Positions 234 to 337 of a DNA stretch of 40,520 nt are shown piece after piece (positions within the stretch are counted from its first letter, which is position 1; every line of letters begins with the position of its first letter). Source of the DNA: Escherichia phage phiYIO1-1. The translations under genes were made by a program, and so were the position numbers. Where the stretch lies: sequence record PP079210. One strand, given 5' to 3'. A model generated the notes under the pieces. It did not search any database, had not been told where the DNA came from, and was given only the letters and a program-made list of their open reading frames with translations.

Positions 234-337
234 GTCCTACACCTACAGTCCTACACCTACAGTCCTACACCTACAGTCTCACTAACCTACAGCCTCAACC
301 ATAAGACACCAACACCTACAGTCCTACACCTACAGTT
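234..337. repeat. Tandem array of 14-mer CCTACACCTACAGT (3 perfect copies, then degenerate copies)
   Basis: Direct reading: cctacacctacagt x3 at 236-277, then a degenerate stretch and about two more copies at 314-337. Position immediately inside the left end matches the short repeat array T7 carries next to its terminal repeat. Confidence 0.8.

Follow-up and report, generated by a model that had tools for sequence, protein, structure and literature searches.

The window is the whole stretch of 40,520 nucleotides analyzed here, and its ends were 85 to 97% identical to Kayfunavirus records (K1F-like phages of the Autographiviridae, Studiervirinae), with no identical record in the collection searched. 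Two arrays of short repeats lie near these ends, among the following features of the packaging region.

1 to 203, plus strand: direct terminal repeat (TR), of which the window holds one copy, with boundaries inferred by homology.
204 to 211, plus strand: TATCTGTA, a pause-like motif (TATCTGT) at the inner TR boundary, counterpart of the T7 'CJ' class II signal ATCTGTT.
234 to 337, plus strand: left repeat array with the core ACCTACAGT(C), very probable counterpart of the T7 left array.
36214 to 36477, plus strand: gene 18, small terminase (Pfam DNA_Packaging_2, E=4.7e-12), 100% identical to the K1F gene-18 product.
37657 to 39384, plus strand: gene 19, large terminase and candidate trans-acting partner, with 98% identity to the K1F 'maturation protein' and 63-64% identity to T7/T3 gp19.
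39947 to 39985, plus strand: last phage-type promoter, counterpart of T7 phiOR (families D1 and D2, ..CTTAACTATCACTATAGGGA..).
40125 to 40283: 52-codon ORF, gene 19.5-like, with a TYRFL motif in common with T7 gene 19.5 (translations compared by eye).
40317 to 40359, plus strand: 12-bp inverted repeat without mismatches (arms CTAAGGTCAGTA and TACTGACCTTAG, separated by 19 nt), located after the gene 19.5-like ORF and before the right array.
40446 to 40484, plus strand: right repeat array, very probable counterpart of the T7 right array.
40485 to 40520, plus strand: junction element from the right array to the TR start, near the predicted left-end cut site.

The left array was reported by Tandem Repeats Finder at positions 234-336 with a period of 14, 7.1 copies, and a score of 107. 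The unit CCTACACCTACAGT is perfect at 236-249, 250-263, 264-277, and 323-336, and a near-perfect unit, CCAACACCTACAGT, occupies 309-322. The degenerate units at 278-308 carry the cores ACCTACAGC (285-293) and ACCATAAGA (298-306), and altogether the interval 241-336 holds five exact copies of ACCTACAGT and one copy with a single mismatch. In the right array, exact copies of ACCTACAGT were found at 40460-40468 and 40476-40484 and a one-off copy, ACCTATGGT, at 40446-40454, giving unit spacings of 14 and 16 nt (40446 to 40460 to 40476). By eye, weaker C(C/T)T..GGT-like units apparently run upstream of the right array to about position 40375. The initial annotation had described three perfect tandem copies plus degenerate copies near the left end and recurring motifs near the right end, and both descriptions were confirmed at the positions given above. 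Every end copy of ACCTACAGT is carried on the plus strand. The whole window contains 11 exact copies against 0.44 expected, a number reached in none of 100 dinucleotide-preserving shuffles. In addition, no inverted repeats were found in the left 520 nt, thereby indicating that the left array is not a hairpin element.

The boundaries of the TR were determined by comparison with K1F and Vec13, whose repeats are 178 bp and 179 bp, respectively, according to end-to-end matching of records that hold both copies (the Vec13 repeat is also annotated). In the alignment of the window with K1F, K1F base 178 corresponds to window position 203. A 24-nt insertion, GTTACTGCTCCTTGCAGTCACAGC, lies within the TR of the window at 67-90 relative to K1F, so the inferred TR is about 203 bp instead of the 178 bp of K1F. 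[quoted passage not shown] In K1F and Vec13, ...TTTGAGACCACA is followed directly by the right TR, TCTCACAG..., and in these two phages and eight other junctions the sequence of the window's last bases (...TTTGAGACCACA) runs straight into that of its first bases (TCTCACAGTT...). Circularly permuted records likewise have 40520 adjoining 1. Because the two positions are joined in the junctions and permuted records of relatives, the window is, as judged by sequence comparison, a Kayfunavirus (K1F-like, T7-family) genome with one TR copy.

This arrangement changes how the ends of the window are read. The arrays had been placed at both genome ends, and they do lie near both ends of the window; however, with a single TR copy, 40520 is not the physical right end of the virion DNA. 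Instead, 40520 abuts 1 in the concatemer, and the right and left arrays therefore bracket the TR. The right array accordingly lies about 36 nt upstream of a repeat of about 203 bp, not 36 nt from a DNA end. The left array begins 31 nt past the inferred TR end (203), and its first core lies 37 nt from the TR. The near-symmetry of the distances on the two sides of the TR (36 and 37 nt) was considered and set down to coincidence, since the corresponding distances in T7 are 70 nt from the right array to the repeat and 13 nt from the repeat to the first left core, and the first CCTACAG core of K1F lies 68 nt from the repeat end.

The TR itself contains two further elements. A 19-nt direct repeat, ATAGGTCTAGGCTATGGCT, occurs at 138-156 inside the TR and again at 454-472 (family D5), where it directly follows the TTGACT hexamer (448-453) of an early-promoter-like sequence; this repeat is partly conserved in K1F. 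A leftward sigma-70-like site is present on the minus strand at 122-93, with TTGACC, an 18-nt spacer, TAGACT, and an extended TG. The T3 leftward promoter A0 is annotated at a similar position, 126-150 of the T3 repeat. In the scan for sigma-70-like sites, the number of sites was no higher than the chance expectation.

Read through the concatemer, the order of the features is the phiOR-type promoter, gene 19.5, the hairpin, the right array, the 36-nt junction element, the TR, TATCTGT, the left array, and the early promoters, the early-promoter-like sequence of the window coming after its left array. The T7, T3, and K11 records have phiOR annotated in the corresponding position, and on the concatemer a transcript started at the promoter at 39947-39985 would run through the right array, then the TR, then the pause motif. 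The arms of the inverted repeat at 40317-40359 are kept in K1F and Vec13, while its loop differs, and a putative RNase III stem-loop is annotated at the equivalent place in gh-1. The inverted repeat may be an RNA processing (RNase III) site, or it may form a DNA hairpin as in repeat-duplication models.

The junction element contains a palindrome, TTTTGG-A-CCAAAA (40495-40507), and AAAAGTTTGAGACCACA (40504-40520), which is next to the predicted cut site. It is nearly invariant in ten Kayfunavirus junctions, and by eye it resembles the T7 pre-TR sequence AAAAATCTGAGTGACTA and a similar element in T3, K11, and gh-1. A well-conserved sequence, CCTTTAAGAATCTGA(C/T)AGAAAAATCTGA plus about 8 nt, directly precedes the TR in T3, K11, gh-1 (L041/L042), and the CCTAATG lineage (IMG/VR loci L075-L100), and the Kayfunavirus version of this element differs (GAGTTTTGGACCAAAAGTTTGAGACCACA). 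The conserved pre-TR element is likely the context of the cut site.

At the inner boundary of the TR, TATCTGTA agrees with ATCTGTT at six of seven bases, the last base being different (ATCTGTA), and a 22-nt spacer separates it from the left array. The motif ATCTGTT directly follows the TR in T7 (161-167) and T3, lies at 182-188 in K11 inside an annotated 'concatemeric junction' feature (180-188), and straddles the TR end in SP6. The form TATCTGTA was found in gh-1, K1F, and all Kayfunavirus loci. In T7, ATCTGTT is the class II pause and termination signal of the phage RNA polymerase at the concatemer junction (10.1101/2021.01.11.426313, 10.64898/2026.02.12.705533). T7 RNA polymerase terminates 6-8 nt past AUCUGUU, and any base change in the signal was reported to abolish termination. 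The polymerase-lysozyme complex paused at the signal was reported to interact with gp18 and gp19, starting maturation and packaging (PMC3276506).

Two HNH endonuclease ORFs were also observed in the window. The first (39359-39940; Pfam HNH_3, E=1.5e-14) lies between gene 19 and the phiOR-type promoter; in the K1F record this interval is shorter and has no annotated ORF. The ORF of the window has the appearance of a homing endonuclease inserted near the packaging region. The second (12424-12858; HNH_3, E=2.1e-17) lies just upstream of the DNA polymerase gene, and its 3' part contains a 33-nt tandem repeat at 12748-12841 (2.4-2.5 copies, 90-93% identity).

Four exact copies of ACCTACAGT are internal, at 4922, 6817, and 23104 on the plus strand and at 38656 on the minus strand, against about 0.45 expected. 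All four are kept at homologous K1F sites, close relatives being too similar for this conservation to inform. Two of the copies are in coding sequence, in the gene 1.6-like and gene 12 ORFs. At 4922 the copy is in intergenic DNA: the ORF next to gene 1 ends shortly before it, and a phage promoter comes about 65 nt further on. This copy falls in the region equivalent to the annotated primary origin of T3. The 7-mer CCTACAG is enriched about 3-fold internally on both strands. In addition, a 21-nt stretch of the gene 1.6-like ORF (6810-6830, AGCTGTCACCTACAGTCTTCG) agrees at 20 of 21 bases with unit three of the right array (40469-40489, AGCTGCCACCTACAGTCTTCG), and the gene-12 site (23097-23117) shares CACCTACAGTCTTC (family D14). 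The third right-array unit comes in two versions among relatives, which makes it conceivable that the version in the window arose by conversion; it may be a short-patch conversion templated by the gene 1.6 site.

The initial annotation had stated that T7 carries short repeat arrays flanking its terminal repeats, and the T7 sequence bears this out. Next to its 160-bp TR, T7 has CCTAAAG/CATAAAG units, mostly 13 nt apart, at 175-355, with the left array beginning 15 nt after the repeat. On the right side, CCTAAAG/CCTAAGG/CATAAAG units lie at 39621-39706, and the right repeat starts from 39778. The same arrangement with a different unit, as had been proposed for the window, holds here and in each T7-like lineage that was checked. 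The array motifs are CCTAAAG and CCCTGTAG in T3, ACCTGAGG in K11, and CCATAGG in gh-1, and uncultured IMG/VR lineages found via gene 19 have CCTAATG and CCTTATG arrays. SP6, of another subfamily, has seven copies of CTTAGT after its 174-bp repeat and only two copies before its right repeat. The layout was checked directly in T7, T3, K11, gh-1, two uncultured lineages, and SP6, where it is weakest on the right side.

Of five features that define a T7-type array, the window has four, namely, a T7-like genome with a TR of about 150-250 bp, a left array, a right array, and a common core in one orientation. The fifth is a class II pause signal, for which TATCTGTA in the homologous place, one base off ATCTGTT, is a candidate. 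Very probably, the arrays of the window correspond, in the Kayfunavirus group, to the short-repeat arrays on the two sides of the T7 TR.

To define the conserved part of the unit, 17 distinct Kayfunavirus post-repeat regions were analyzed, with 79 units (54 distinct) anchored on the CCTACAG heptamer. Outside the heptamer, A was found at -1 in 49 of the 54 distinct units, T at +7 in 52, and C at +8 in 45, and the other flank positions carried 0.1-0.6 bits. With these three positions conserved and the flanks near-random, a 10-nt core, ACCTACAGTC, is kept while the spacers and copy number drift. Copy number turns over rapidly: the left arrays of the 17 genomes contain 2 to 7 cores at a spacing of 13-16 nt, or about double where a unit has decayed, and one locus (L024) has only 2 CCTACAG copies. 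A conserved core between free spacers would be expected if selection acts on a core for binding and not on the unit as a whole.

The same data bear on a neutral explanation, in which the arrays are slippage-prone non-coding junction DNA with no sequence-specific role, and the two sides are kept alike by unequal crossing-over or gene conversion. Copy number and spacers do change fast between close relatives, and recent expansions are evident. The triple perfect 14-mer of the window has expanded recently and locally, and outside the window it occurs only in the vB_EcoP_F type (L023/L049); it sits in the half of the array that is not alignable with K1F; likewise, a T7-group contig (L112) has expanded the variant CCTAACG five times. 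However, neutral expansion should leave the units of one genome alike over their full length and those of different genomes with nothing in common, whereas across the 54 units the 10-nt core is kept and the spacers are free. The right arrays are also held steady, with three CCTA[CT][AG]G-type units in nine of ten Kayfunavirus junctions and two in the remaining one (L015), and arrays occur at the same two places in T7, gh-1, and SP6 despite the turnover of the motif. A purely neutral origin is therefore considered improbable.

The left and right arrays also covary. Among seven lineage representatives, the 7-mers found after the TR recur before the TR in their own lineage and essentially never in others, and only 2 of 5040 column permutations reached the observed diagonal sum. 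T7 and T3 share a motif, as their close relationship would lead one to expect. The covariation could also stem from gene conversion between arrays that are about 200 bp apart in the concatemer. Gene conversion alone would not explain the conserved core with free spacers, nor the presence of arrays at both places across subfamilies. Taken with the core and spacer pattern, the covariation argues, at the level of sequence, that the arrays are read by a protein.

A role in transcription was considered as another explanation, in which the arrays modulate pausing, termination, or release of the phage polymerase at the class II signal, or act as promoter-like decoys, and are not read by the terminase. 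The left array starts about 25 nt after the pause-like TATCTGTA, and T7 RNA polymerase terminates 6-8 nt past its own signal. CCTACAG differs from the promoter core ACTATAG at two of seven positions, and several of the internal copies on the reverse strand (CTGTAGG), such as those at 7862 and 20934, are found within phage promoters or immediately upstream of them. On the other hand, the right array carries the same motif although it is upstream of the whole TR, more than 240 nt before the pause motif, and T7 and T3 share CCTAAAG though their polymerases recognize different promoters. When the array units were compared with the promoter consensus of the window (..AACTATCACTATAGG..), none joined, at identities of at least 68%, the promoter repeat families D1 and D2, whose copies reach down to this identity. 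Promoter mimicry was rejected as the main explanation, with no array unit in D1/D2 and CCTACAG matching only 5/7 of ACTATAG, and a transcriptional role in general appears unlikely.

The arrays might otherwise act in replication and duplication of the repeat, as priming, nicking, or strand-exchange sites, or in DNA entry, as leading-end sequences during ejection. They bracket exactly the segment to be duplicated, and the conserved hairpin at 40317-40359 lies just upstream, but by inspection the array units contain no T7-type primase site ((G/T)(G/T)GTC), the sequence offers no evidence for a nicking enzyme, and ejection would account for the left array only, so that we give these roles a similarly low probability.

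We tentatively prefer a function in DNA maturation and packaging, and a platform with multiple protein-binding sites, located where concatemer units join, is a quite possible, though not a firm, description of the arrays. On each array, a sequence-specific protein engaged in maturation and packaging would land; the candidate readers are gp18 (the small terminase), a complex of gp18 with gp19, or a partner brought in by the paused phage RNA polymerase. The reader would recognize the core of about 10 bp, ACCTACAGTC, at several sites spaced by 13-16 bp on either side of the TR. Its binding would identify the junction within the concatemer and set the positions of cutting and of repeat duplication. 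The initial annotation had suggested packaging or processing signals, and such a role is consistent with the position of the arrays, their conserved core, and their left/right covariation. From the same observations we infer that a protein would bind the arrays, which protein may be the reader, and that the binding would be important for packaging. A copy number of 2 to 7 without obvious cost indicates that no fixed number of sites is needed. The 13-16 nt spacing is out of phase with the DNA helix and would be awkward for simple cooperative binding on one face. In the literature that could be reached, no experiments on the function of T7-type arrays were found.

The gene 18 product of the window is a candidate trans-acting reader of the arrays. 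In published work, the DNA that determines packaging specificity between T3 and T7 falls within 5% of the termini. The protein gp18 is said to recognize pacB, which is given without coordinates, and gp19 to cut at pacC (PMC9860248). We compared the gene-18 products of 82 loci and found that a central segment, R(S/T)PQLYNA..K.L.RHKF, hardly changes between lineages whose array motifs differ, while the rest of the protein co-diverges with phylogeny. Because the center is nearly invariant and the remainder tracks phylogeny, this comparison neither supports nor excludes gp18 as the reader; if gp18 does read the arrays, the residues behind the change in specificity are not obvious.

The motifs themselves suggest a further, more speculative step. 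Kayfunaviruses, T7/T3, and the lineage with CCTAATG all have the outer bases CCTA..G but differ from one another in the two inner bases. The arrays might constitute a lineage-specific 'address code' that the packaging complex reads on both sides of the TR, a reading that we regard as doubtful. If so, the code would decide which concatemers a terminase processes when related phages co-infect one cell, and it would be the long-sought determinant of T3/T7-type packaging specificity, co-evolving with its reader protein. Swapping the motif between K1F-type and T7-type junctions would be relevant to engineered T7-family transducing particles and phage-therapy chassis.

The layout described here is of practical use as well. 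The arrays, TATCTGT, and the junction of ...GAGACCACA with TCTCACAG together allow the true ends and the missing TR copy to be placed without end sequencing, and arrays stand at the same two places in each T7-like lineage checked. The T7 arrays were reportedly named SRL and SRR by Dunn and Studier in 1983, and arrays of this kind are said to have been known since that T7 genome paper. The finding is ordinary in that the array kind has long been known, while its function was apparently never pinned down in the literature reached; the covariation across lineages and the contrast between core and spacer are modest additions to it.

Arrangements comparable to the proposed platform are known from unrelated phages. 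In phage P1, the region of cleavage at the pac site is flanked by hexamer repeats, which are bound by pacase. The likeness lies in short, oriented repeats clustered on both sides of a packaging cleavage. The differences are that P1 belongs to an unrelated phage family with an unrelated terminase, that its repeats are Dam-methylation sites, and that it packages by the headful mechanism without a fixed terminal repeat. In phage lambda, the R sites of cosB are bound by the small terminase gpNu1, and the working model here is similar in having several copies of a short site beside the cut site that would be read by the small terminase. In contrast, the lambda sites are on one side only and need IHF-induced bending, and the binding of the arrays here is a proposal.

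The closest comparison remains with the T7 group itself. In T3, K11, gh-1, and SP6, the layout is alike, and the left and right arrays share a lineage-specific motif that differs from that of the window. Compared with T7, the unit is CCTACAG(TC) with a period of 14-16 instead of CCTAAAG with a period of 13, and the pause motif is ATCTGTA instead of ATCTGTT. CCTAAAG occurs three times inside the T7 repeat, whereas CCTACAG is absent from the repeat of the window, and the left array of T7 has 11 exact CCTAAAG/CATAAAG units against 6 cores in the shorter left array of the window. Nevertheless, comparison with the T7 sequence showed the same genome organization in the two phages. The left repeat is followed closely by one array and the right repeat is preceded closely by the other. 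Both arrays are co-oriented and built of imperfect units about 13-16 nt apart around a heptamer-centered core, and the class II pause motif of T7, like the pause-like motif of the window, comes between the repeat and the left array.
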